From the sequence record OX638288: DNA of 64,000 nucleotides. The stretch is one strand, 5' to 3'. Source of the stretch: Escherichia phage UP19. The translations under genes were made by a program, and so were the position numbers. How positions within the stretch are numbered: the first letter of the stretch is position 1; each line of letters starts with the position of its first letter. The notes beneath the pieces were generated by a model that was not told the DNA's origin, did no database searches, and worked only from the letters and a program-made list of their open reading frames with translations. Below, one piece after another: positions 1 through 51,406 of the stretch.

Positions 1-195
1 AGTAAGATTGGTGAAGTATCTAAAAAGGATTTTGGAAAGGTAATGGGACTGACAGTCCAAGATATTTTGGAAGAAGCAGCCCGTGAAGAATTAGAATTAA
101 CCGATGCAGAAAATCCTGTTGAAGTTAAAAAGCAGCTCGTTGAGTGTGTAAAAGATACCTTAAGAGCCGTATGGATTGAACTAGTATCCAAATAA
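1..195 (+). CDS. 3' end of a gene running in from the window edge (partial), product unknown
   Basis: Frame-1 open from position 1 to TAA at 193-195; convergent with the gene 24 paralog; followed by a hairpin terminator. Confidence 0.4.
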   Translation, partial: SKIGEVSKKDFGKVMGLTVQDILEEAAREELELTDAENPVEVKKQLVECVKDTLRAVWIELVSK

Positions 196-200
196 ACAAT

Positions 201-229
201 AAAGGGACCTTACGGTCCCTTTTATTTTT
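201..229. terminator. Bidirectional intrinsic terminator between convergent genes
   Basis: Stem GGGACC(204-209)/GGTCCC(214-219), loop TTAC, A-run upstream and T-run downstream. Confidence 0.6.
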
Positions 230-1502
230 CTAGTGGTGGAAGTTTAACACCAAGATAAGAACTCAACTGGCTTTGGTTAGCCATTTTGTCCATATCAGAG
301 CCATCAATAATGCGGGCTTCTTTATAGTCCTTAGCGACGGTATAAGGGTTTGCAGTCAATGCATAACGAGCAAGCAATGCTACTGTAGGTTGTAAGCTTT
401 CCGGGTCAACAATAACCTTAAATTCACCTACTGAAGTATCCCCTTCCTCATCAACCTCATTCAAACCTTCCGTATAAGGCGCATAATATAAAGATGCGAC
501 TGTCTGTCCTTCACCCATCTGAGCATTTACACCAACAATAACATAATCACATGGACTATTCATATCAGCATAAAGAGGCAGACCATTCTTTAATACACCA
601 TAAGCCAGTTCGTCCTGGTCTTCCTTTTTCTCAACCCAACCAGAAGCGGCGAGAATAGCAGCACAACGAGAACTAGCTACTGCATAAGTCCCGGCGAAAG
701 AAGTTTGACGTTGGACGGCAGAGTTCATCTCACACATGTAATAATATAATGTACGAGCACGGTCCTGGGCATTATCGTAACGTGGGTTGGTAAGGTCTAA
801 TACACCCTTTTCAGAAACACCCTGGACTTTAAAACGAGAACTCACCGTAATTAATGACTGCAATACGTCCTTATTAATTTCTTCTGCCATTTGAATGCCT
901 AGCAGATTTTCAACGAAATTAGGAGCATTAAACCCATTTGATTCTAGGTCTTGGGCCAATTCGACTGTCAAAGAAGTTTTCAGTTTACGTGATTTAACCT
1001 CAGATTGCCATTTATCAATACGGAAGCCTGCTTCAGCAATTTCAGGGTGACCTTGTTCAAATTTAGAAGTAATAGCAGCATCTGATACCATACGAATATG
1101 CCCAGCGGCCACTGCTTCAGAAATAACTTCACCGAGGTCGGTTTCTGTGGTTCCGGCGAAAGGAGATGCTTCTAGAACTTTAAACACTACACTTTCAAAT
1201 TGGAACATATCGCCGGCTGCATAAGCTGTAGACGAATCGGTAAATTCAGGAATATTTTCACGTTCCGACATACCAATCTGGCCTGCAAATGTAGCGCCAC
1301 CAAGATAAGTCATTTTGTCGTCGGGATTAAGTACACGAATCCCGTACAGAGCGGCAACAGGTTGGCTTGTTTTTTGTTCAGCAACTAGGGCTTTAAAGAT
1401 TCGTTTATTAGTTGCTTGGGTGTATGAAAGAAGAGCAGGACGGCCAACCGAGTTGGCAGCCGTCAATGTGGATTCTTTAATTAGGTCTATAATCTTAGAC
1501 AT
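222..1502 (-). CDS. Second gene-24-family head vertex protein paralog (gp23/gp24 fold)
   Basis: 426 aa; roughly half identical by eye to the adjacent gp24; shared blocks SRKLKT..LTVELAQD.ESNGF and PYTVAKD.KEARIIDG; ATG overlaps the upstream stop (TAATG). Confidence 0.75.
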   Translation of the reverse strand: MSKIIDLIKESTLTAANSVGRPALLSYTQATNKRIFKALVAEQKTSQPVAALYGIRVLNPDDKMTYLGGATFAGQIGMSERENIPEFTDSSTAYAAGDMFQFESVVFKVLEASPFAGTTETDLGEVISEAVAAGHIRMVSDAAITSKFEQGHPEIAEAGFRIDKWQSEVKSRKLKTSLTVELAQDLESNGFNAPNFVENLLGIQMAEEINKDVLQSLITVSSRFKVQGVSEKGVLDLTNPRYDNAQDRARTLYYYMCEMNSAVQRQTSFAGTYAVASSRCAAILAASGWVEKKEDQDELAYGVLKNGLPLYADMNSPCDYVIVGVNAQMGEGQTVASLYYAPYTEGLNEVDEEGDTSVGEFKVIVDPESLQPTVALLARYALTANPYTVAKDYKEARIIDGSDMDKMANQSQLSSYLGVKLPPLEK

Positions 1503-2785
1503 TAATCAGCCTCGTAAATAATTGCTGGAAGTTTAACACCAAGCAGATAAGACATATTGCTCTGACCAGCCATTAAATCCATATTGGTTGCATCGATAAC
1601 ACGAGCTTCTTTATCGTCTTTAGCTACGGTGTACGGGTTAGCGGACAGTGCATAACGAACCATCAGAGAAATAGAAGGCTGTAATGAATCAGGGTCGACA
1701 ATAACCTTATAAGCACCAACGTGTTCTTGGTCATCTAAATCCAGGCCTTCTGTGTATGGGGCATAGAAAATAGAACCGACAACTTCATTACCTCCATAGT
1801 TCTCTTTAACACCTACGATAACATAATCCAATGGGCTGTTAACGTCACAGAACAGAGGTAATCCATTCAACAAATAACCATAGGCAGTTTCTGGGAGCCA
1901 ATTATTATCTTCAGGTTTATGTTTTAACCAGCCAGAACCTGCAAGCATTGCAGCCACACGACTTGAAGCCACAACAAACGTGCCGGAATAAGAAGTAGTT
2001 TTCTGGATTTCAGAATTCATCTCACAAACAATTTCATAAAGTTTACGTGCGGATTCCGGAGCACTGGCATAAGTCAAATCGATGATGCCATTATCAGATA
2101 CACCAGTAACTTTATAGCGTTTAGATACGGTTATTAGAGATTGCAGAACGTCTTTATTAATTTCATCTGCCATTACTGTAGCCAGGAGGTCTTCTAAGAA
2201 TGCAGGGGCGTCGAAGCCATTTGATTCCATATCCTGTGCCAATTCTACGGTCAAAGCAGTCTTCAATTTACGGGTCTTAACAGGAGCATTCCATTTATTA
2301 ACCTGGAATACGGCGTCAGAGATTTCTACATCACTCGCTTCGAATTTAGTGGTATGAGCAGCGTCCGGAACCAGACGACATGTTAATGACACCAAACCTT
2401 CTTGAAGAGCATCAGCCAATCCTGTAGCGCTAGTAGATGCGAGTGGGCTTGCTTGAAGAGCCTTATAAACCACATTCTGATACTTAAAGTAGTCACCCTT
2501 GGCAATAGCCTGGGCTTTATCTGTGAGTTCCTGGATAGTTTCACGGTCTTTAGAACCAACTTCACCACCATAAACAGCACCAGTTTGGAAACTGAATTCA
2601 TTATCAGGGGTAAGATATTTGACACCATACAATGCAGCAATAGGCTGACTAGTACGTTGTTCAGCGATGATATCGCGATAAATTAGTTTAGTGGTAGCAC
2701 GGGTCAAAGCAACAAGATTAGGGCGACCCAATGAGTTGCTGGTAGTAGTTGTTGACTCGCGCAGTAATTCGTTAATCTTTGCCAT
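1502..2785 (-). CDS. 24: gp24 head vertex protein
   Basis: 427 aa, same length as T4 gp24; N-terminus MAKINELLREST and most of the length match T4 gp24 as remembered. Confidence 0.9.
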   Translation of the reverse strand: MAKINELLRESTTTTSNSLGRPNLVALTRATTKLIYRDIIAEQRTSQPIAALYGVKYLTPDNEFSFQTGAVYGGEVGSKDRETIQELTDKAQAIAKGDYFKYQNVVYKALQASPLASTSATGLADALQEGLVSLTCRLVPDAAHTTKFEASDVEISDAVFQVNKWNAPVKTRKLKTALTVELAQDMESNGFDAPAFLEDLLATVMADEINKDVLQSLITVSKRYKVTGVSDNGIIDLTYASAPESARKLYEIVCEMNSEIQKTTSYSGTFVVASSRVAAMLAGSGWLKHKPEDNNWLPETAYGYLLNGLPLFCDVNSPLDYVIVGVKENYGGNEVVGSIFYAPYTEGLDLDDQEHVGAYKVIVDPDSLQPSISLMVRYALSANPYTVAKDDKEARVIDATNMDLMAGQSNMSYLLGVKLPAIIYEAD

Positions 2786-2813
2786 TGCGCTTTCCTTATT
2801 GAGGGTATATGTT

Positions 2814-2821
2814 TATTTATA
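2814..2821 (-). promoter_or_regulatory. T4-type late promoter (TATAAATA) for gene 24
   Basis: Plus-strand TATTTATA is TATAAATA on the minus strand, about 30 bp upstream of the gene 24 ATG. Confidence 0.6.
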
Positions 2822-2827
2822 AAAGTT

Positions 2828-2857
2828 GTTTACAGCAAGGTTCCCACGTGTTACTAT
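2828..2857 (+). promoter_or_regulatory. Early sigma70-type promoter (GTTTAC, 18 bp, TACTAT) of the conserved module family
   Basis: GTTTAC at 2828-2833 and TACTATAGTCCTATCAA box; drives the opposite-strand seg cassette. Confidence 0.55.
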
Positions 2858-2886
2858 AGTCCTATCAAAACATGAGGAGATTAAAA

Positions 2887-3156
2887 ATGGACAAGTTAAA
2901 CTTTATTCGTACTACTCTTTCAGCTCTTGATAAAGACATCAAAGCCTTGGTAGAAAAATATGGTTCCAATCCTAATGGTAATGCAGTGAACGCGTTAGTT
3001 AAGAAATACGAAACCATGGCTTATGCTACTGACTTCTGGTGGAATGGTGAATACTCTACCCATACCAAAGACAAATCCGGTAACTGGCTGAAAATCCAAG
3101 AAAATCGTATTGACTTCCGTGATATCATCAACCGCCGGGTCAAAGTAGAGGCCTAA
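2887..3156 (+). CDS. Hypothetical small protein, first gene of the seg cassette
   Basis: ATG at 2887 with GAGGAG SD at 2864-2869; the ORF-track start at 2872 lies inside the SD. Confidence 0.45.
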   Translation: MDKLNFIRTTLSALDKDIKALVEKYGSNPNGNAVNALVKKYETMAYATDFWWNGEYSTHTKDKSGNWLKIQENRIDFRDIINRRVKVEA

Positions 3157-3159
3157 AAT

Positions 3160-3819
3160 ATGAATTATTTAATTTATAAAATAACTAATCTCATTAATAA
3201 CAAGATTTATGTTGGAGCCCATGCAACCGTAGATATCAACGATTCTTATATGGGCTCCGGGGTTAACGTAGTAAAATCCATAAAGAAATACGGATTGGAG
3301 AATTTTAAAAAGGAAATCCTTTTCAATTTCGAAACATCTGAAGAGATGTATGCTAAAGAAGCCGAACTAGTTGATGAGGCTTTTGTCATGAGAACAGATA
3401 CCTATAATGCGGCCATAGGCGGTAAGGGTAATCCTGTTATAGTAGCTTTACAGGAACCTGGGTATCGTGAGATGTTATCCAAAAAGACTAAGGCCGGTAT
3501 GACTGAAGAAGTTCGGGCCAAAATATCTAAAAAGAAATTAGGTTCTAAAGAATCTAAAGAACATCGAGAAAACAAATCTATAGCAAATAAAAAGTTTTAT
3601 AAAAATAGAGATTCTCATCTTAAAGGTAGAAAACTATCAGAAGAGCATAAAGCAAAAATTAGAAAGAATTCTAATAAAGGTAAGAAATTTGTATTTGTGG
3701 ATATTTCTATTAAAGGTCATGAATTTAACCACTACGATTACGCTGCCGAATTCTTTAACGTATCCGCAAAAACTATAAGAAATTGGATTAATGAACGCGA
3801 TGATTGTTTTAAGCTATAG
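3160..3819 (+). CDS. GIY-YIG homing endonuclease (seg-like; same position as T4 segD)
   Basis: N-terminal YLIYKITN..KIYVGAH and YMGSG..NAAIGG match the GIY-YIG fold; basic C-terminal tail; 219 aa; opposite strand to 23 and 24. Confidence 0.7.
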   Translation: MNYLIYKITNLINNKIYVGAHATVDINDSYMGSGVNVVKSIKKYGLENFKKEILFNFETSEEMYAKEAELVDEAFVMRTDTYNAAIGGKGNPVIVALQEPGYREMLSKKTKAGMTEEVRAKISKKKLGSKESKEHRENKSIANKKFYKNRDSHLKGRKLSEEHKAKIRKNSNKGKKFVFVDISIKGHEFNHYDYAAEFFNVSAKTIRNWINERDDCFKL

Positions 3820-3829
3820 AAACAAGAAT

Positions 3830-3847
3830 GGGAGACCGGAGTCTCCC
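3830..3847. terminator. Hairpin terminator between the convergent seg-like gene and gene 23
   Basis: GGGAGAC-CGGA-GTCTCCC; near-identical hairpins recur at 41800 and 42859. Confidence 0.5.
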
Positions 3848-3876
3848 ATAAGGTTATGTATTTTAACGTTAAAGCA

Positions 3877-5436
3877 TTAAATTCCTTTAACGTAGACGCG
3901 TCTAAAGTAACCATTCAGACCAAGGCTATTAACAATGTCCGGCATGCCGTTCTGAATGCGCTTGGTCGGAGCCTGAGCAGCAGGGTCAGCAAACGGGTTA
4001 ATACCGATACCGTAACGAGTTTTGAAGCCCATTACCGGCTGGAAGTTCTTCGGATCGGAACCGCGCAGTGGGGTCAGTGCAACGTAAGGAGCGTAGTAGA
4101 TACCTGCGTCCATTTCGTTGGAACCTTTATAACCGATAGTGAAGTAATCAGCACGGGCATACTGGTCGATGTAAACGCGATATTTACCACCAAGAACACC
4201 GGCAAATACTGCTTTAGTGGTGTCAACGTTGAAACCTTGACCCAGACCCTGAGCGGCATAACTTACAGAAGTATCAACTGCAGCCAGTACGTTAACTACG
4301 TTACGGGAAGCGATGATGAAGTTACCAGCACCACGACCGGTCTGACGAGCGATTTCGGCTGCTTCTTTATCAATCTGGAACAGAAGGGCTTTAAAGCTCT
4401 CACCGGCCCAACGAGCACCACGGATATCAATCGGGTCCTGGAAGTCAAACACACCAGCTTTAGCGCCAACGGTGTTGGTCATACCGGATTTACCAACCTG
4501 TGCAGAGTAGTTAATCCAATCGATAACTTCACGGTTGATTTCCAGCATAATTTCGGTAGCCAGAATACCACTCAATTCAGCATCTGCATCCATACCGTGT
4601 ACTGCACGAAGGTCCTGTGCCAGTTCGATGGAGTAGCTTGCTTTCAGCTGACGGGATTTAGCTTCGATAACTTGTTTATCGATACGGAAGCCCATTTCGT
4701 TCCACGGGTTATCAGTAGAACCGTTGAAGCCTTCCTGAAGTTCAGCGATAGAAGTAGCCATACCTTCAGCCAATTCAGCCAGCTGACCAGCTTCTAACAG
4801 AGCGGTTACGGCAACATCCAGTTTAGCGGCATCGGTAGCAGCGGCATCAACGGTTACGGCTTCAACAGCCTGGAAGTGTGCAGAACCGGTAGCTTCGAAG
4901 AAGTGAGAATAAATTTTACCAACTTCCAGAACTTTACCTGCAGCCAGTGCTTCAAAAGTCTGAGCAGCACCCTGACCAGAGAACATAGCATTCGGAGCAT
5001 ACATCGGGTGGAAAGCTTCTTTAGCACCAGCAGCGATAGGGTCTTTACCGTATACTGCACGCAGTGCAAATACCTGGCCGGTAGGGTTATTCAGAGGCTG
5101 AACACCACAAATATCAAAAGCAATCAGATGAGGAATAGCACGACGAACCATACCCATTACTGCCGGCCCAATCTGAGTTACAGCACCAGAGGTCTGGCCA
5201 GCTGCGATATTGGTAGCATCATAACCGTGGTCACCACCGATTTCAGCTTCAGTCAGGAAAGAACCAAATGCTTCGGAGATTTTTTCGTCACGATATTCAG
5301 GAGCGGTCAGAATATCTTGTTCCTGGTTTTCAAAGATTTTAGCGATGATAGCTTGTTTAGAAGCACCAACGATTTCAGGAAGAGCTTCGTTTTCCAGCAG
5401 AGCGGACCATTTTTGAACTAATGCATTCTTTTTCAT
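3877..5436 (-). CDS. 23: gp23 major capsid protein
   Basis: 519 aa; ..LPEIVGASKQAIIAKIFENQE.. and gp23/gp24-family blocks; position after 22. Confidence 0.92.
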   Translation of the reverse strand: MKKNALVQKWSALLENEALPEIVGASKQAIIAKIFENQEQDILTAPEYRDEKISEAFGSFLTEAEIGGDHGYDATNIAAGQTSGAVTQIGPAVMGMVRRAIPHLIAFDICGVQPLNNPTGQVFALRAVYGKDPIAAGAKEAFHPMYAPNAMFSGQGAAQTFEALAAGKVLEVGKIYSHFFEATGSAHFQAVEAVTVDAAATDAAKLDVAVTALLEAGQLAELAEGMATSIAELQEGFNGSTDNPWNEMGFRIDKQVIEAKSRQLKASYSIELAQDLRAVHGMDADAELSGILATEIMLEINREVIDWINYSAQVGKSGMTNTVGAKAGVFDFQDPIDIRGARWAGESFKALLFQIDKEAAEIARQTGRGAGNFIIASRNVVNVLAAVDTSVSYAAQGLGQGFNVDTTKAVFAGVLGGKYRVYIDQYARADYFTIGYKGSNEMDAGIYYAPYVALTPLRGSDPKNFQPVMGFKTRYGIGINPFADPAAQAPTKRIQNGMPDIVNSLGLNGYFRRVYVKGI

Positions 5437-7367: not shown

Positions 7368-7642
7368 TATTCGTCGTCCTCGTCGTCTTCATCATCGTCA
7401 TCACCTTCATCCGCATCGTCAGATTCTTTTTTGTCTTTCTTATCTGCTTTATCGGATTTTTCGTCTTTATCTTCGTCTTCGTCATCTTCGTCGGCTTCTT
7501 CGCCTTCAATCATAACGGAGCGAGCAATTTCTGCTTTACGGGCTTCAATCAAAGCGGCTACTCGAGATTCGATAAGCGGGGCTGCTGCTTTACGAACTGC
7601 TACGAGGTCGTTTGATTTAATAGCTTCGATTAAATCTTCCAT
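7367..7642 (-). CDS. 67: gp67 prohead core protein
   Basis: 91 aa with a strongly acidic C-terminal tract; synteny 20-67-68. Confidence 0.7.
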
Positions 7643-9216
7643 TAGAAATCCTCTTCTTCATCATCTGGGTTTTGGAAACGAGCCTCTTTAGACTCTTCTT
7701 CAATTTGCTTAGCTTCTTGATTAATTTCTTCGTCAGTCATCTGAAGGAAATCTTTCATAGCCGTTTGATGCGAAATATACTTACCAATAAATGGTTCAGC
7801 CATCGTTAGCATATTGATTCTGCGTTCCATGATTTCCGCATCTTTCATTTCACTGAAATAGCTATCACGGTTGAACGTAACTTTAATATTATTTATTTCT
7901 CTTTCCCACTCATCTTCTGTAATAATCTTTTTAAGAATGAGGTTTGTTTTTAATGGGTCTAAGAAAATTTCTTCAAATTTATTTTGGAGCTGTCGAATCC
8001 ATTTAGCAAATTTCAACTCATCACGAGTTATAGCCGTACCAGCATCAAACATAACACCGGAATTAGATTCACTAGGGATACGTGACTCCGGGATACGCAG
8101 CGCACGATAAAGTGCTGTGCGGAAATAAAGAACGTCATCCATATCACTCATACCTGTGGCACCAGGCATGGTATCAACTTCTGTTACCGCTTTACCGTCT
8201 CGACGTTGCAACCAATAGTCTTCAGTCATCGACATATTATGTTGCTGGTTTTTAATTTTACCGGTCGAAGCATCATATACCACACGGTTTTTCATCGTGT
8301 TCATGATATGTTGCATTTGTGCCGCAGCCTTACGAGAAGGCATATTTCCTGTATCGATATAAAATACACGACGGTCAGGAGCACGGGTAATACGATAGAT
8401 GACCATTGCATCTTCCATCAATTTAAGCTGGTTTGCAGGCTTAATAGCACGTTGCAAATAGCCAATGATGTTTTTACCACAGCAATCCAATAACCCAGAA
8501 TGTGCATAAACTACAGCAGCACGAGGAATTTTAACTTTAGTCCCAGCTGAATAAATGCGTCCATCAGCACAATAACTTTCATGACCAGTATCGTAAACGA
8601 AAAACTCGCGGTACCCATCTACAATTTTAACACCATCTTCCATACGTGTAACAATTTCACGAATGTATTGGACTTGGCGCGGGTCTAAGCGTCGAAGCTC
8701 TTGTACGCCATCTTTCATTTTTTTAGGGTTTATAATTTTATGAAAGAATATTCTCGAGTCTACATACCAACGTTGGAAATGGTCAGTGCCTTTACGTTGG
8801 AAATTTAAAAGATTCAAAACTTCACTAAATTCAGCCAAAATTTTATCTTTAATTGATTGACTGAACTCCGTCCCGTCTAAATTTAATGCAACTACTTCTT
8901 TATCATCCTCGTAGACAATAGCGTCAGACACAATTTCTTGAACTGCGTTATCGACTTCATAGTTGTTCATCAAATTACGGTAGGTATCAATGAGTTCCCT
9001 GGTGTTTTTAACTTCAGGCTCATTACTACCAAACATTTGTTGCATAAGAGCGTTATAAGGAATATTTTGCTCTTGGGTTTCAATTTCGCGAGCGCCATCA
9101 TCAAGCTTAGGTGCAGTGACAGACTCTAAATTGTTATTAATTTGTTGTTTATATTCTTTTTCGTCTTCATTAGCCCATGGCTTAAGAAAACTTAATATTG
9201 TATTAAAGTTTGCCAT
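7642..9216 (-). CDS. 20: gp20 portal vertex protein
   Basis: 524 aa, same length as T4 gp20; synteny 19-20-67. Confidence 0.9.
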
Positions 9217-9264
9217 TAGAGTCTCCGATGAATGGGATAAGGAGCCGAAGCTCCTTTATAATTC

Positions 9265-9272
9265 TATTTATA
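9265..9272 (-). promoter_or_regulatory. Late promoter TATAAATA upstream of gene 20
   Basis: Plus-strand TATTTATA in the 19-20 intergenic region. Confidence 0.5.
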
Positions 9273-9273
9273 C

Positions 9274-9777
9274 TCATTCCCACCAATCGATAGCGAACGT
9301 AGATTCGAAAGTTTCTACCTCGTTGTTTGAATCCCAATCCATCTGGACTTCACCAACGTTAGTAGGCCATAAGCCATAAATTGTAACTTCTTTAGTCACA
9401 GTCTTACCGTCACGATGGAACTGACGAACAACTGCTTGTTTCTTATATTCTGCAGGTGCTGCACCTGTAATTTCATTGGTCATACCATGGCAGAGGTTTT
9501 GCCAATCGACAATTGCCTGACGGGTGTCATGGGCATCATCGTTGTAAATGGTAATGGTCCAATCATCAAACGTACGGTCGCCAGCTACGTTAATTTTACG
9601 GTTCATGTAGCCAACCGGTACTTTTTCTACAATGCCTGCCGGCATAGGTGCTGCTTTACATTTAAAGCTAAAGTTTTTACCAAGAAATGGAATTTCCACT
9701 TCGAAAAGGTTAGGGCGTGCAAAGTCACCTGACTCAAACGCACGAGTGATATCTGTCAACTCCATGGGAGGCCTCAT
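9274..9777 (-). CDS. 19: gp19 tail tube protein
   Basis: 167 aa; position between the sheath and portal genes. Confidence 0.85.
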   Translation of the reverse strand: MRPPMELTDITRAFESGDFARPNLFEVEIPFLGKNFSFKCKAAPMPAGIVEKVPVGYMNRKINVAGDRTFDDWTITIYNDDAHDTRQAIVDWQNLCHGMTNEITGAAPAEYKKQAVVRQFHRDGKTVTKEVTIYGLWPTNVGEVQMDWDSNNEVETFESTFAIDWWE

Positions 9778-9783
9778 AAGTCA

Positions 9784-9825
9784 GTTCCTGGCCACACCAG
9801 GAACGTTCTGATTAATTTATTTATA
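9784..9825 (-). promoter_or_regulatory. Gene 19 late promoter (9818-9825) plus leader hairpin GTTCCTGG-CCACA-CCAGGAAC
   Basis: Perfect 8-bp inverted repeat at 9784-9804 whose mRNA 3' arm contains the AGGA SD 8 nt before the ATG. Confidence 0.5.
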
Positions 9826-9972
9826 ACAGTTGATAAATCATATTCCTGATAGTTAATCACTCCCAGGCGCAATTCTACGTGATATACGCTGTAACCAAAC
9901 ACATGGTATAATGGTTTTAGGTTCTTTATATTACAGCCTGGGATAATAGATTATACTAATAATATAATTTAT

Positions 9973-10614
9973 TTAGGATAGTAAGTCCCATAAGTCTATT
10001 GAACTAGACTTACTTTTAGCTCTATTAGATTCCCAAGTGATTATTTCTAAATTTGATAGTTGGGCTATCATTTCAGGAGGAAGATGATTATAAAATCCGT
10101 AAGCTATAGAAACCTTATGGTCTAATTGATACGCACCTTCAACTCCACATCGCCCTATTTTATCCGCATTTTCCCAAGTCATCCAAATCTTTTTAAGTTT
10201 AGGAGACCTAGTCAAAGCATGGACCCTTCCTGCATAAAGGTCGAATTCCTTTCTATTACCTTTCCATCTAGAATGCCCTTCTCCAATTTGCCAAGGCCTT
10301 GGCTTACCTGCTTGGGTTTTAGAATTGGTCTTATTAGCTTGTTTTCTAGAACACTCAAAACAGTGATGCTTATCGGCCCTATTTAAAAGTTGAAGACTTC
10401 TAGTAAATTTTAATCCGCACTCATCACAAGAAGCTTCTACCTCTTTATTAGAGTTTTTAGGGACCAAATGTATAGGAACCTCTATTACATCAGAATAATT
10501 TACAAGATATCCCAATATTTGACTCCATCTTTTGCAGTTGTTTCTTGGATATACTGTAACAAATTTAGAAATAATCACTTTAGAAATCCTTGCGCGTATT
10601 GTGTATACGCGCAT
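9973..10614 (-). CDS. HNH-family homing endonuclease-like protein inserted between genes 18 and 19
   Basis: CxxC..HHCxxC zinc motif and QLDHKVSIAYGF..NL..ITWESNRAK HNH motif; T4 has no gene here; hairpin GCGCGTAT/ATACGCGC overlaps the start codon. Confidence 0.6.
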   Translation of the reverse strand: MRVYTIRARISKVIISKFVTVYPRNNCKRWSQILGYLVNYSDVIEVPIHLVPKNSNKEVEASCDECGLKFTRSLQLLNRADKHHCFECSRKQANKTNSKTQAGKPRPWQIGEGHSRWKGNRKEFDLYAGRVHALTRSPKLKKIWMTWENADKIGRCGVEGAYQLDHKVSIAYGFYNHLPPEMIAQLSNLEIITWESNRAKSKSSSIDLWDLLS

Positions 10615-10642
10615 TATATTATAAAGCTTAGAGCAAGTAAAC

Positions 10643-12625
10643 TTAAACTAAAGGTCCAATCAACTCGTCAAAATCCGCACCGGTGGATGTAGCCACGAAA
10701 TTTAAAGTTATGTAATTTATCGATCTCGCAGGTTTAACATAGATATTAGCAATAAACTCATTACGGTCGATAACCGCAGGGGTGTTCACTGTAGTATCAC
10801 AAACCACACGTCCTTCATAAATCCCACCAAGTGCCTTAATACCATCTAAGTACTGAGAAACTTCCATACGGAAGCTTGAACGAGTGAAGTTATCGTTCAA
10901 TTCAAACAGTTTATATTTAGAGGCATCACCGATATTTTTCTTAAGCATGTTGAACAGACGGCGAACGTTAATGTGGTCCATCGGAGATGGAACTTTAGTT
11001 GCAGTCTTATCACCAAACAATACGAAACCATCACCACCAGCAAAACCAACAACTGGGTTAATAGCTTCCTGGTACATGCGGTCGCGTTGTGCTTGACGCG
11101 GTTCAATTGCCAATTTCAGAACGTTAAGAATCTGACCACGGTTATAACCGGCAGGAGACATCCAAGGCTGAGACACATCATCAGTACGTGCACACAAACC
11201 AGCCAAATCGGCAGCCAGTGGTACCCAACGGTTTACGTCGTTATATTTGTCGTATTGATATTTATAGTTACCATCAATAGCGGCATAAGTGGTACTGATG
11301 TTCATGTTGTTGGCATCGAAATTACCGGCACCGGTACGCCAGTCAATAAGGTTATCTACTGCACGAGTCAGTGGAACGTTAACCAACAGACCTTTAGGAG
11401 GAGAAATAAATGCTAAGCAATCCTGTCGTTCATCAGCAATACTCACAACGTGTTTCTGAACAGTAGAAGCCACTTCATCGCCTTCACCGGCAACAGCACC
11501 AGCAATAAGCAGGTTAATATGGAGTGCTTCACGGTCGGCAAACAAATCCCAACCCTGCATCAAATCGCCTGCAGTAACTTTATCGTTGGCGGAAATACCA
11601 CCAGACAGATTAATGATACCACTAAATCCTTTTGGCCAGTTTAACGAGGTAGCATAGATGTAATTAGAAGTACCTTTAGCGAAATAATCATCAAGATAAA
11701 TGTTATTACCGTAAACGTCTTTTTCACCTTCTTTGGTGGAAAGTACGACTGATTCTACGATAGCACCATCGCGACGAACGATAATGGCATATTGGTCATC
11801 TGTTTGAGGTCCGTAATTAAATACTGCCTTGACAATAGAAGCACGGGTACCGCCACCAGGATAAACATCCAACATTTTAGAAGAACCAGCTTCATAAGCT
11901 GCTTTAGAAACGATTTCTACTTCCAGAGTAGAACCAATTTCACCAGGATAAAGGGCCACTACGCCTGGCATAGCAAATTTCTTAAGGGCCGCTTGGAATT
12001 CAAGAGAAGTAATAGCTTCTTCACTATTCTCAGCTTCAGTCAAAAGAATACCGGAATCGGTAACAATTCGGCCGACGGTAATAGTACCGGAAACACCCGA
12101 AGAGGCAGAAGTAACTTCAGCAGTCCAAGCCGGGCCTAGGGTAGGATACTGGTTTAAAGAACGCGCGTAAGCAATAATTTTTGCTGACGGAATAAACACA
12201 GAGAGAATTTTACCGTCTGTATCTACAGAAGTCACACGACCTTCAGATTCGACTACAGTTTGGTTATATTTAATATTAATTTTATCGCCTACAGCGTAGT
12301 TGGAACCAGCCGTAGTAATAGTGGTTTCGATATTACCAGCGACAGGAGATGCGTTTTTAGCAAATTCGCGACTAACAACACGAACTGTACGAAGGTCATT
12401 ACCATACTGGAGGAAGTTCATACCAGACATAAAGTAATCTGCTACTTCGTTATTAGGACCTCCAAACAAATCAACCAGTTCAACTTCATTGGTAATCTGA
12501 GTTACCTGGAAAGCAGGGCCCCACTGGAATTTACCAACCAGCGCTGCACGACCCGTTGCGTTACGAACGACAGTACTCTGTACGGACGTTTCTTTGAGCT
12601 CAATGCCCGGTGATAATAAAGCCAT
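10643..12625 (-). CDS. 18: gp18 contractile tail sheath protein
   Basis: 660 aa, matching T4 gp18 length; synteny 17-18-19. Confidence 0.9.
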   Translation of the reverse strand: MALLSPGIELKETSVQSTVVRNATGRAALVGKFQWGPAFQVTQITNEVELVDLFGGPNNEVADYFMSGMNFLQYGNDLRTVRVVSREFAKNASPVAGNIETTITTAGSNYAVGDKINIKYNQTVVESEGRVTSVDTDGKILSVFIPSAKIIAYARSLNQYPTLGPAWTAEVTSASSGVSGTITVGRIVTDSGILLTEAENSEEAITSLEFQAALKKFAMPGVVALYPGEIGSTLEVEIVSKAAYEAGSSKMLDVYPGGGTRASIVKAVFNYGPQTDDQYAIIVRRDGAIVESVVLSTKEGEKDVYGNNIYLDDYFAKGTSNYIYATSLNWPKGFSGIINLSGGISANDKVTAGDLMQGWDLFADREALHINLLIAGAVAGEGDEVASTVQKHVVSIADERQDCLAFISPPKGLLVNVPLTRAVDNLIDWRTGAGNFDANNMNISTTYAAIDGNYKYQYDKYNDVNRWVPLAADLAGLCARTDDVSQPWMSPAGYNRGQILNVLKLAIEPRQAQRDRMYQEAINPVVGFAGGDGFVLFGDKTATKVPSPMDHINVRRLFNMLKKNIGDASKYKLFELNDNFTRSSFRMEVSQYLDGIKALGGIYEGRVVCDTTVNTPAVIDRNEFIANIYVKPARSINYITLNFVATSTGADFDELIGPLV

Positions 12626-37765: not shown

Positions 37766-37990
37766 ATGAAAACTTATCAAGAATTTATTACAGAAGCTAA
37801 AAAACACGAAGACCAACTGCCGGTTGTTACAAAAACCTTTGACGGTACATTGGCCGATTTTAAAAAAGTCCCTAGTGATAAGCTCGCTAAATTGGCCGGG
37901 AGTATCGGTGAAAAAGATGGCAAGGTCACGTTTTCTGCTCAAGGTACAGCCAATCTTAAAAAACTTTTGAAAGCCGCTGGCGCAGAATAA
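37766..37990 (+). CDS. Internal-protein-like gene (MKTYQEFITE|AK), Lys-rich
   Basis: Capsid-targeting leader at the ATG 37766; the ORF-track start 37754 lacks an SD. Confidence 0.6.
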   Translation: MKTYQEFITEAKKHEDQLPVVTKTFDGTLADFKKVPSDKLAKLAGSIGEKDGKVTFSAQGTANLKKLLKAAGAE

Positions 37991-37991
37991 A

Positions 37992-38264
37992 ATGAAAACT
38001 TATCAAGAATTTATCGCTGAATCTATTCTTAATGAGGAAGTAAAAATTAACAAATCTGTTAAGACTATGATTGATAATATAAATCATCTCTATAACATCG
38101 ATTTGACTAATCATGTAACTTTAGGCAATAAGCTAAACTTTTTTGTATTCGATACTTCAGAACTCGACCAAAATCAAATCAATAATATTGAACGCTTTGC
38201 TAATGACAAAGGGCTTCGTCACGAAACAGCTGGCTATAAAAAATATGCAATTTATCTAAAATAA
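37992..38264 (+). CDS. Internal-protein-like gene (MKTYQEFIAE|S)
   Basis: Capsid-targeting leader; ATG one base after the upstream stop. Confidence 0.6.
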   Translation: MKTYQEFIAESILNEEVKINKSVKTMIDNINHLYNIDLTNHVTLGNKLNFFVFDTSELDQNQINNIERFANDKGLRHETAGYKKYAIYLK

Positions 38265-49152: not shown

Positions 49153-49647
49153 ATGGATATTTTTGATATGTTACGTCAAGACGAAGGTCTTGATTTAAAT
49201 CTTTATAAAGACACTGAAGGTTATTGGACTATTGGTATTGGCCAGTTAGTTACCAAGAACCCATCTAAAGATGTTGCTCGTGCCGAACTTGACAAACTTA
49301 TGGGTCGGGTTTGCAATGGACGTATTACTATGGCTGAAGCTGAACAACTCTTTAACCGTTCAGTGGAAAATGCTCGTAGAGCTATAATGCGTAATCCTAA
49401 ATTGAAACCGGTTTATGATGTGCTGGACGAAGTTCGTCGTTGCGCGCTGATTAATATGGTCTTTCAAATGGGTGAAGCTGGTGTCGCTGGATTTACCAAC
49501 TCTCTGCGTATGCTCCAGCAGAAACGTTGGGATGATGCCGCAGTTAACCTGGTGCAGTCCCGTTGGTATAAGCAGACTCCGAATCGCGCTAAGCGAGTTA
49601 TCTCTACATTTAAAACAGGAACTTGGAAAGCATATGAAAACCTATAA
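49153..49647 (+). CDS. e: Endolysin (T4 lysozyme)
   Basis: 164 aa; catalytic E11, D20 and T26 conserved; roughly 70% identity by eye to T4 lysozyme as remembered. Confidence 0.93.
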
Positions 49648-49903
49648 AGAATTTTTGGCCGAATCTCAACTGAACGAAAACACTGACCTAGACCGTATGA
49701 CATTCCTGGCTAAGAAAGGCGGCTTCGAATTTAAAGCCATTAAGAAAGTAAATGGGTATTCTTTTGAAGTCGGTGAATATACCTTTGGTAACAAGGGTGA
49801 TGGCCAGTGGCAAATTGTTAAAAACGGCAAAGAAGTAGACTACCTTTTCGGTAAGAAACTTAGTGACATTGCTAAAATAATGGGCGAATATTCTAAAAAA
49901 TAG
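49634..49903 (+). CDS. Internal-protein-like gene ([10 protein letters not shown]|S)
   Basis: Capsid-targeting leader; ATG 49634 overlaps the 3' end of e. Confidence 0.6.
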
Positions 49904-50878: not shown

Positions 50879-51406
50879 ATGAAATTTTTAACTCCCATTT
50901 ATCTAACCTTAATGCACGCCTTCGCTGAACGCGCCATTGAACGTTTAGACTCAGACCAATATACCTGGTACGAACCCACTTCAAGAATGCAAGAGTTTGG
51001 TACTCTTCGACTTGACGGCGGGCGTCAAACAGGTAAAACAAGTGCCCTTGCCCAGTTCGCAGCTGATTGGGTTTCCAAGGGTAATGATGTGATTGTTATG
51101 TCAAGTTCTTCGCATCGCTCACGAGAAATCTGTAATATAATAAAAAGGGTTTCTAAGGCCCAACCACACCTTCAAGTAGAAGGTCCTGGGTTTGTTGTAT
51201 ATGATACCATGCGTTCATTTTTAGACGAAGATAACTTCCATAAGTATCGTGGTCTATCAGTTACTCGATTATTGATTATTATCGAAGAGCCAATGCGCCT
51301 TCCATCGATGGATAAGTTCTATGAAGCTTACCAGGTAATGATTAACAAATTTATGTGCCAGGGTTCTAAACCTCTGCCACTGTTCTTTGTGATAGGAATG
51401 CAATGA
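50879..51406 (+). CDS. Small P-loop NTPase-like protein
   Basis: Walker A-like GGRQTGKTS and Walker B-like LLIIIEE. Confidence 0.45.
   Translation: MKFLTPIYLTLMHAFAERAIERLDSDQYTWYEPTSRMQEFGTLRLDGGRQTGKTSALAQFAADWVSKGNDVIVMSSSSHRSREICNIIKRVSKAQPHLQVEGPGFVVYDTMRSFLDEDNFHKYRGLSVTRLLIIIEEPMRLPSMDKFYEAYQVMINKFMCQGSKPLPLFFVIGMQ

Follow-up and report, generated by a model that had tools for sequence, protein, structure and literature searches.

We analysed a 64,000-nucleotide stretch of DNA from Escherichia phage UP19 (sequence record OX638288; hereafter, the window), classed here as a JS98-like Dhakavirus, at the junction between gene 18 (tail sheath) and gene 19 (tail tube). An earlier sequence-only reading had proposed that a free-standing HNH homing-endonuclease gene invaded this junction. 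We found that the junction holds a 692-bp insert relative to JS98, with an open reading frame (ORF) for a predicted nuclease, and that presence and absence among relatives, sporadic spread, a synonymous tract in gene 18, fidelity to the site and purifying selection all support the proposed invasion. In this region, genes 20 and 19, the ORF and gene 18 all run on the minus strand:

7642-9216, minus strand: gene 20 (portal)
9274-9765, minus strand: gene 19 (tail tube), the downstream host gene; PHROG tail tube
9766-9959, minus strand: native 18-19 spacer, outside the element; 99-100% identical in insert-free JS98
9960-10651 or, equally, 9955-10646, minus strand: the 692-bp insert relative to JS98, from alignment with JS98, PSD9 and QL01 and from the junction sequences
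9973-10614, minus strand: the ORF between genes 18 and 19, as first listed
10643-12625, minus strand: gene 18 (tail sheath), host gene on the upstream side; assigned from PHROG tail sheath (E = 5e-143) and from the JS98 annotation

To define the insert, we compared the junction with that of related phages. A megablast search with window positions 9000-11500 as query returned, among the matches listed, JS98 and about 12 further records at 96-98% identity; these records covered just 73% of the query because the ORF is absent from them. A whole-window blastn alignment with JS98, the flanks of which are 97-100% identical, opened a gap at the insert (gap_q=683) with a 9-bp overlap. The boundary can be drawn in two ways because the 5-bp sequence ACTAA (TTAGT on the coding strand) is present at both ends. 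With a slash marking the junction, the coding strand of JS98 reads ...GGA CCT TTA GT/A TAA TCTATT..., and that of the window reads ...GGA CCT TTA GT/T TAA GTTTAC...(cassette)...ATTATATTA TTAGT/ATAATCTATT.... The cassette therefore begins within the last codon of gene 18 and supplies a replacement stop codon. It then contains a promoter-like element, a hairpin, a Shine–Dalgarno (SD) sequence and the ORF, and closes with a tail that ends 13-18 nt past the ORF stop. The ORF is flanked by genes 18 and 19 as first described (gene 19 ending its upstream side at 9765 or 9777), and the gap is indeed larger than in T4, in which 116 bp without an ORF separate the two genes. The insertion itself was thus confirmed by insert-free JS98, but the proposed size of about 870 bp, including about 195 bp of noncoding DNA, did not hold: the noncoding part is native spacer, since JS98 without the insert has an 18-19 spacing of 185 bp.

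We next considered the protein, for which we identified the following features:

9973-10578, minus strand: nuclease ORF, 201 amino acids, GTG start; T6 ORF19.1 / VR7 gp19.1 / PHROG 5104 family
9976-10266, minus strand: C-terminal His-Me finger (HNH-like) nuclease module, approximately residues 105-201
10351-10428, minus strand: CxxC-x18-CxxC zinc finger (C51, C54, C73 and C76, numbered from the GTG start), from alignment

The ORF most likely starts at GTG 10578, because the conserved protein of this family begins there with (M/V)IISK in the alignment and the extensions upstream of it differ between alleles. The PHROG 5104 alignment with the ORF begins at residue 13, and all eight type-A alleles with DNA inspected (T6, PSD9, VR7 and five more) have a GTG start. 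ATG 10614, which overlaps the TATAAT -10 box of the promoter-like element, is probably not the start codon. A large protein database contained 39 relatives, none of which carried a precomputed Pfam domain. The best of them, 91% identical, came from metagenome assemblies; among isolated phages the best identity was 66.5%, and we regard the window allele as new on these comparisons. Relative to its nearest relative, the ratio of nonsynonymous to synonymous substitution rates (dN/dS) was 0.086, with dS = 0.6, and the protein is therefore maintained by purifying selection.

The zinc finger described by the sequence-only reading (CxxC..HHCxxC) was borne out, as its four cysteines are nearly invariant in 35 homologs. 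Weak zinc-finger matches were seen among the homologs (DUF4379 in 10 members, Zn_ribbon_8 in 6), and this Cys4 finger is a probable DNA-binding element of the treble-clef or zinc-ribbon type. In the C-terminal module, D153, H154, N176 and N185 show no variation among 35 full-length and 64 C-terminal-domain sequences; beta1 ends with D153-H154, N176 is placed at beta2, and a helix holds N185. A confident AlphaFold2 model built from the 35-sequence alignment (predicted local distance difference test score, 88.6) placed Y-Q-L-D-H on a strand at 150-154, N-L-E-I-I on a second strand at 177-181 and W-E-S-N-R-A-K on the next helix. This predicted arrangement is the beta-beta-alpha metal-finger fold of the His-Me finger superfamily, with the expected catalytic histidine and preceding aspartate (D153-H154), structural asparagine (N176) and metal-ligand asparagine on the helix (N185).

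Curated models did not recognize the protein. None of the HNH profiles searched (Pfam HNH, HNH_2-5 and Endonuclease_7; NCBIfam) matched it at E <= 1, and the sole curated HNH match among the 35 homologs was one to HNH_4 (E = 0.078). When sequence profiles of the full-length protein and of the C-terminal domain were run against PDB sequences, the matches were limited to zinc fingers and spurious leucine-rich repeats (LRR), the latter caused by the motif IGxIxNLQxIxWxxN, and a Foldseek search of the model against the PDB gave nothing significant. Other comparisons pointed to a nuclease. The C-terminal modules of a minority of relatives cross-matched PHROG families of endonuclease VII (10 of 64, best 2e-7) and HNH endonuclease (3e-5), distant viral proteins carry the same module fused to NUMOD3 DNA-binding motifs (above the Pfam threshold), and structural neighbours in BFVD include proteins named HNH or homing endonuclease. 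We conclude that the protein is a predicted divergent His-Me-finger nuclease (HNH-like, 'H-N-N') with about 22 extra residues between the strands. The HNH motif first noticed thus stands in its catalytic D-H/N/N residues, which are present and invariant, but not in recognition by Pfam or NCBIfam hidden Markov models; the assignment rests on the invariant residues and fold evidence.

We also observed the C-terminal module (CG.EG.YQLDH...NLQ.IPW..N..K) in other viral proteins, encoded away from gp18 and gp19, at IMG/VR loci L040-L093. Its partners there include NUMOD3 repeats, multiple zinc ribbons, DUF7487 and C-terminal extensions of about 550 amino acids, and the nuclease module appears to have been shuffled among many DNA-binding partners.

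The 5' head of the cassette, between the gene 18 stop and the ORF, is compact:

10613-10642, minus strand: promoter-like element GTTTAC(T)-17-TATAAT, sigma70/T4 early type, 10/12 matches
10591-10613, minus strand: hairpin TGCGCGTAT/ATACGCGCA, 9-bp stem and 5-nt loop
10576-10591, minus strand: SD AAGGA (10591-10587), 8-nt spacer and GTG (10578-10576), read directly in the sequence

GTTTAC(T)-17-TATAAT is the best promoter-like site within 9200-11200, and GTTTAC is the T4 early -35 consensus (PMC1524935). On the coding strand the hairpin has the form UGCGCGUAU-ACACA-AUACGCGCA; it directly follows the -10 box and extends to the first A of the SD. The window contains 8 perfect hairpins of this class against 0.87 expected, and the 91-nt region containing this one had a folding z of -2.35. 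A weak, A/U-rich lower stem of 6 bp (GCUUUA/UAAAGU; ACUUG/CAAGU in VR7) touches the GUG. The PSD9, L008, VR7, myPSH1140 and Roth77 alleles retain both the -35 and the -10 element. The PSD9, L008 and VR7 alleles have an identical stem with differing loops, and unrelated hairpins occupy the same position in T6 and sb1 (GGGGC-UUCG-GCCCC), myPSH1140, Roth77 and phiS. By this comparison, what is conserved at the cassette head is the structure of the hairpin, not its sequence.

Read in order, TAA, GTTTAC(T), 17 nt, TATAAT, the 9-bp hairpin, AAGGA, 8 nt and GTG match in layout the published promoter-early stem-loop (PeSL) arrangement of stop, -35, -10, stem-loop, SD and start, and five other alleles retain this layout despite different hairpin sequences. 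In PeSL elements, a downstream non-core ORF is expressed from the promoter, and the stem-loop attenuates transcription that arrives from upstream (PMC2839356). The hairpin had been proposed to overlap the start codon and to control translation there. The hairpin is real, but it lies outside the likely start at GTG 10578, and that mode of control was not supported: the SD lies 3' of the main stem, the hairpin sits between the -10 box and the SD, and the arrangement that sequesters a ribosome-binding site (SD or start inside the stem, with an embedded late promoter) was not found. Transcripts from the cassette's own promoter would start within the 5' arm of the hairpin and be translatable, so that the hairpin would form only on read-through gene 18 mRNA. 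On such late read-through transcripts, the hairpin and the 6-bp lower stem at GUG would attenuate or mask expression.

Other candidate roles for this region were rejected. An intrinsic terminator of gene 18 was discarded for want of a U-tract on the coding strand, the hairpin having been flagged only on the plus strand, where TTATATTATA follows. Judged by eye, neither a middle promoter of the MotA type nor a late promoter fitted the cassette 5' end in spacing or sequence; no TATAAATA was seen in the 5' region of the insert. A search of 9200-11000 against Rfam gave no meaningful match.

Outside the insert, gene 18 itself carries a divergent tract:

10646-10727, minus strand: divergent, purely synonymous tract over the last ~28 codons of gene 18, window versus JS98

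The window and JS98 are 99-100% identical on both sides of the insert, except over the last ~85 bp of gene 18. In this tract 18 codons differ, all of them (18/18) synonymously, and identity just upstream is 100%. Across 11 Dhakaviruses, nucleotide diversity in the last 30 codons was 0.163, the highest in gene 18, compared with 0.012 just upstream, and there was almost no amino-acid change in these codons. An independent pair gave a similar picture: T4 (empty junction) and T6 (occupied) show 16 differences in the last 30 codons and 0-7 per 30 codons elsewhere. The locally elevated divergence that is looked for in the gene flanking a homing endonuclease gene is present at this locus. Over the conserved motif SINYIxLNFV, carriers from four genera share the haplotype ATA AAT TAT ATC nnn CTT AAT TTC GT, and the 'naive' empty genomes of JS98, VR5 and T4 share ATT AAC TAC ATY ACS TTR AAC TTC GT. 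The insert-free phages IME08, ABTNLsp5, MN04, KIT01 and C6 have graded, partial carrier-type tracts, as would be expected from recombination that separates the gene from its flank. We read the tract as a putative product of co-conversion, as a putative immune variant of the homing site, or as both.

To determine how widespread the ORF is, we examined phages that encode T4-type gp19. Homologs were found in 243 of 1,599 such records, approximately 15%; the ORF is thus sporadic, and the alternative raised at the outset, that it might stand at this site in all relatives with no sign of mobility, does not describe the data. Among the matches listed, the insert was absent from JS98 and 12 other records with flank identity of at least 96%, and the only Dhakavirus carriers at the exact site were PSD9, UGJNEcP3/4 and QL01. 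The allele of these carriers is 50% identical to that of the window; its DNA ends are near-identical and its centre is replaced. The window ORF is a mosaic with PSD9-like ends and a T6/VR7-like centre. The T4 junction is empty and the T6 junction occupied, the pattern of presence and absence typical of free-standing homing endonuclease genes.

The position of the ORF was highly constrained. It lies directly downstream of gene 18 in T6, VR7, PSD9, QL01, Sinorhizobium phage phiM12, myPSH1140, phiS, Roth77 and sb1, and every full-length relative that we checked is directly after gene 18. The IMG/VR relatives that matched ~70% or more of the query (L014-L039 and L046-L049) all lie between gp18 and gp19, as scored wherever the flank was present, and the gp18 proteins of these contigs are only 34-49% identical. 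Two relatives at the 18-19 junction, L038 and the shorter L052, are on the opposite strand.

We also observed a distant sub-lineage of the same family, of 223-230 amino acids with an ATG start and 29-32% amino-acid identity:

L010 (Bp7), 2438-3109: distant sub-lineage ORF
L012 (Ent31), 2501-3193: distant sub-lineage ORF
L013 (CHI14), 2369-3052: distant sub-lineage ORF

These ORFs occupy the other end of the 18-19 spacer, within or beside the gene 19 late promoter, and have upstream of them a strong hairpin followed by TATAAATA. In contig L028 (IMGVR_UViG_2706795394_000001), gene 18 has the same 3' codons as VR7, a type-A carrier, and a 32%-identical relative lies 206 nt past the gene 18 stop, a type-B-like spacing. 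This contig suggests mutual replacement of the two sub-lineages on a common backbone.

Taken together, we think it probable that the element is a compact, free-standing homing-endonuclease cassette of the ORF19.1 family that a JS98-like Dhakavirus gained at gene 18's 3' end. During mixed infection, the nuclease would cut the empty allele carried by a co-infecting phage, within or close to the conserved stretch of coding sequence at the 3' terminus of gene 18; the predicted target is the SINYITLNFV codons or the junction itself. Recombinational repair would then copy the cassette and a variable stretch of the gene 18 3' end into the recipient, and this copying would leave a synonymous patchwork across the last ~30 codons. 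Carriers would be protected by the insertion itself, through disruption of a site at the junction, or by the synonymous changes in the SINYITLNFV codons.

Several observations weigh against this account. In phages sb1 and phiS the ORF stands beside the 'naive' ATT AAC...AAC haplotype, which rules out a strict rule that carriers always have variant gene 18 codons. The link is also not absolute in the other direction, as several insert-free phages have the 'carrier' haplotype. T-even genomes are generally mosaic, and there are other divergent patches near the locus. At the cassette head, promoter-like sites in the region are not more numerous than expected by chance, and no U-tract follows the hairpin. 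Distant marine or freshwater relatives have no hairpin, and their ORF ATG overlaps the gene 18 stop, which looks like the arrangement of a stably integrated gene. Finally, searches of the literature on ORF19.1/gp19.1 and on an 18-19 homing endonuclease found nuclease activity, cleavage site and homing unreported for any member.

Some of these points would also fit a mobile nuclease gene that is spread by general or PeSL-mediated modular recombination and not by its own site-specific cleavage, the nuclease serving the phage otherwise, for instance in anti-defence or by destroying or shutting out the DNA of co-infecting phages. The 'naive' haplotypes of sb1 and phiS agree with such spread, as do the mosaic structure of the ORF, the 5-bp TTAGT repeat on both sides of the insert and the fit of the cassette 5' end to PeSL elements, which Arbiol et al. 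tied to modular shuffling (PMC2839356). However, there is a single PeSL-like element and no flanking pair, and the empty JS98 site has none. Fidelity to one junction in phages with gp18 at 34-49% identity would be hard to obtain without site-specific targeting, and both the two opposite-strand insertions at this junction and the synonymous tract adjoining the insert in two genera are hard to explain by modular exchange. We therefore consider this explanation unlikely, albeit the strongest of the alternatives.

A domesticated accessory gene of the tail or packaging module, kept for a phage function in the manner of the HNH helpers beside HK97-like terminases, is a good deal less probable. The ORF does belong to the late structural cluster, with the large terminase gene ~2 kb upstream of it; purifying selection on it is strong, it is translationally coupled to gene 18 in distant relatives, and cooperation between HNH protein and terminase is documented for HK97 (PMC10055350). 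Yet it is missing from ~85% of T4-like phages, including viable T4, JS98 and most Dhakaviruses; its alleles are only 29-66% identical within one genus, whereas the flanking genes are ~90-100% identical at the DNA level; some relatives are antisense; and T4-type terminases, according to their annotation, have a nuclease of their own. Least probable of all is a zinc-finger nucleic-acid-binding regulator without nuclease activity, for which the missing curated HNH match and the restriction of the PDB sequence-profile hits to zinc fingers and spurious LRRs could be cited, but which would make the invariant D-H/N/N pattern coincidental.

Beyond the cassette as a homing element, we tentatively advance a broader reading, which we rate at slightly less than an even chance: ORF19.1-type proteins may form a distinct, profile-invisible clade of His-Me-finger homing endonucleases that is locked to the 3' end of gene 18 across the T4 superfamily, with an immune haplotype and interchangeable heads. 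Its members may share a C-terminal nuclease with an insertion of ~22 residues and an upstream Cys4 finger, and may range from enterobacterial T-evens to Acinetobacter and Sinorhizobium phages and to metagenomic T4-like phages with gp18 34-49% identical. The 'immune' synonymous haplotype of carriers may extend across genera as ATA AAT TAY ATM nnn YTW AAT, and control may be exerted through interchangeable promoter/stem-loop heads. If true, the clade would make it experimentally tractable to study how a homing endonuclease and a target inside an essential structural gene have co-evolved over the long term.

Outside the insert, the native spacer contains the gene 19 late promoter TATAAATA at 9825-9818 (read by eye), followed by a hairpin in the 5' untranslated region of gene 19 at 9784-9804 (GTTCCTGG-loop-CCAGGAAC). 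In metagenome contig L008, the stem of this leader hairpin is kept and the loop is TAAAT, compared with TGTGG in the window. A long-range inverted repeat, CCCAGGC...GCCTGGG (9862-9868 / 9936-9942), recurs in JS98 and Bp7 and there makes up the base of a large predicted structure. The mechanical ORF list starts gene 19 at ATG 9777 (167 amino acids); the JS98 and PSD9 annotation gives 163 amino acids, GAGG lies six nt upstream of the second ATG, 9765, and that second ATG is the likely start.

We also found other predicted nuclease genes in the window and in relatives:

3160-3819, plus strand: GIY-YIG (Seg-like) ORF, 219 amino acids, MNYLIYKITN...KIYVGAH, with NUMOD3-like repeats
L003 (QL01) 775-1356 and L010 (Bp7) 3706-4287: 193-amino-acid ORF between genes 19 and 20, annotated 'HNH endonuclease'

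The GIY-YIG ORF lies in a second insert absent from JS98, beside gene 23 (window 3144-3819; 671 bp compared with 10 bp in JS98), and matched NCBIfam TIGR01453 'group I intron endonuclease' above the cutoff (E = 6e-16). The flank of this insert, window 1-3143, is only 86% identical to JS98. A perfect 9-bp hairpin with a loop of 4 (ATGGGAGAC, 3828-3849) lies between the GIY-YIG ORF stop and the convergent end of gene 23 and may be a bidirectional terminator tied to the GIY-YIG cassette. The 'HNH endonuclease' of QL01 and Bp7 was rejected as a reference HNH protein, because Pfam gives only a weak SegE_GIY-YIG match (E = 0.005) and no HNH match. The stretch between genes 18 and 20 resembles a hot spot for nuclease genes. 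Gene 20 of Bp7 is annotated as two coding sequences. Further indels or replacements relative to JS98 are found in the early/hyperplastic region, at 37796-38257, ~42170, ~45900, 49627-49897 and 50893-51379; in one example, 1131 bp in JS98 correspond to 271 bp in the window.

Another free-standing homing endonuclease gene in a T-even phage is in itself unsurprising, as the kind is well known. The family, however, has mostly been annotated 'hypothetical' since the GenBank record of T6 ORF19.1 (~1994), and our literature searches on ORF19.1/gp19.1 turned up no account of its function. Although it is present in ~15% of T4-like phages, the HNH models of Pfam and NCBIfam miss it, and fold-based assignment would improve annotation. 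The comparative data point to a concrete candidate homing site, made up of the junction and the ~30 final codons of gene 18, and supply natural donor/recipient pairs in the window phage and JS98 and in T6 and T4. The synonymous hot spot also illustrates how elements of this kind make essential structural genes appear mosaic, which is relevant to phylogeny because gene 18 sequences sometimes serve as phylogenetic markers.

Free-standing homing endonuclease genes of T-even phages are well described (PMC2988022), and the cassette resembles several of them in part; the Edgell 2010 review does not mention the 18-19 locus. Like MobE/Mob of T4 and Aeh1, I-TevIII of RB3 and I-HmuI of Bacillus phage SPO1, it is a small gene between or within conserved essential genes and combines a His-Me/HNH motif with a zinc finger or modular DNA-binding parts; sporadic distribution, co-conversion of flanking markers and tight control of expression are listed as further shared features (PMC2988022, PMC2790892). 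[quoted passage not shown] In the window protein this order is reversed (zinc finger at 51-76, nuclease at ~105-201), HNH_3 and other Pfam HNH matches are lacking and ~22 residues are inserted between beta1 and beta2.

The control region has counterparts of its own. A hairpin is found at the 5' end of the homing-endonuclease genes I-TevI, I-TevII, I-TevIII, segB and Aeh1 mobE, and in the I-TevI/segB/mobE type, transcripts that start inside the hairpin would escape the structure (PMC2988022). In that type, the ribosome-binding site is inside the stem and a late promoter is embedded, whereas the SD of the window lies outside the main stem. In this respect seg43(25) of Aeromonas phage 25 is more similar: a very stable hairpin adjoins the ribosome-binding site of a free-standing homing-endonuclease gene without containing it (PMC2988022), although that gene is of the GIY-YIG (SegD-like) type and lies at the DNA polymerase locus; the regulatory role is putative in both. 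The PeSL cassettes of RB49 and phi1 (Arbiol et al. 2010, PMC2839356) share the upstream stop, sigma70-like -35 and -10 elements, stem-loop, SD and non-core ORF. Those of the RB49 type lie in hyperplastic regions, often with polyG/polyC stems (PMC2839356), whereas the window has a single copy heading a nuclease gene in the late structural cluster, with a predicted promoter/terminator role. T6 ORF19.1 differs in its hairpin (GGGGC-UUCG-GCCCC) and in having no clear promoter, but it belongs to the same protein family, with 66% amino-acid identity over the full length, and shares the position directly after the gene 18 stop, the GTG start behind an SD and hairpin, the zinc finger and the D-H/N/N residues.

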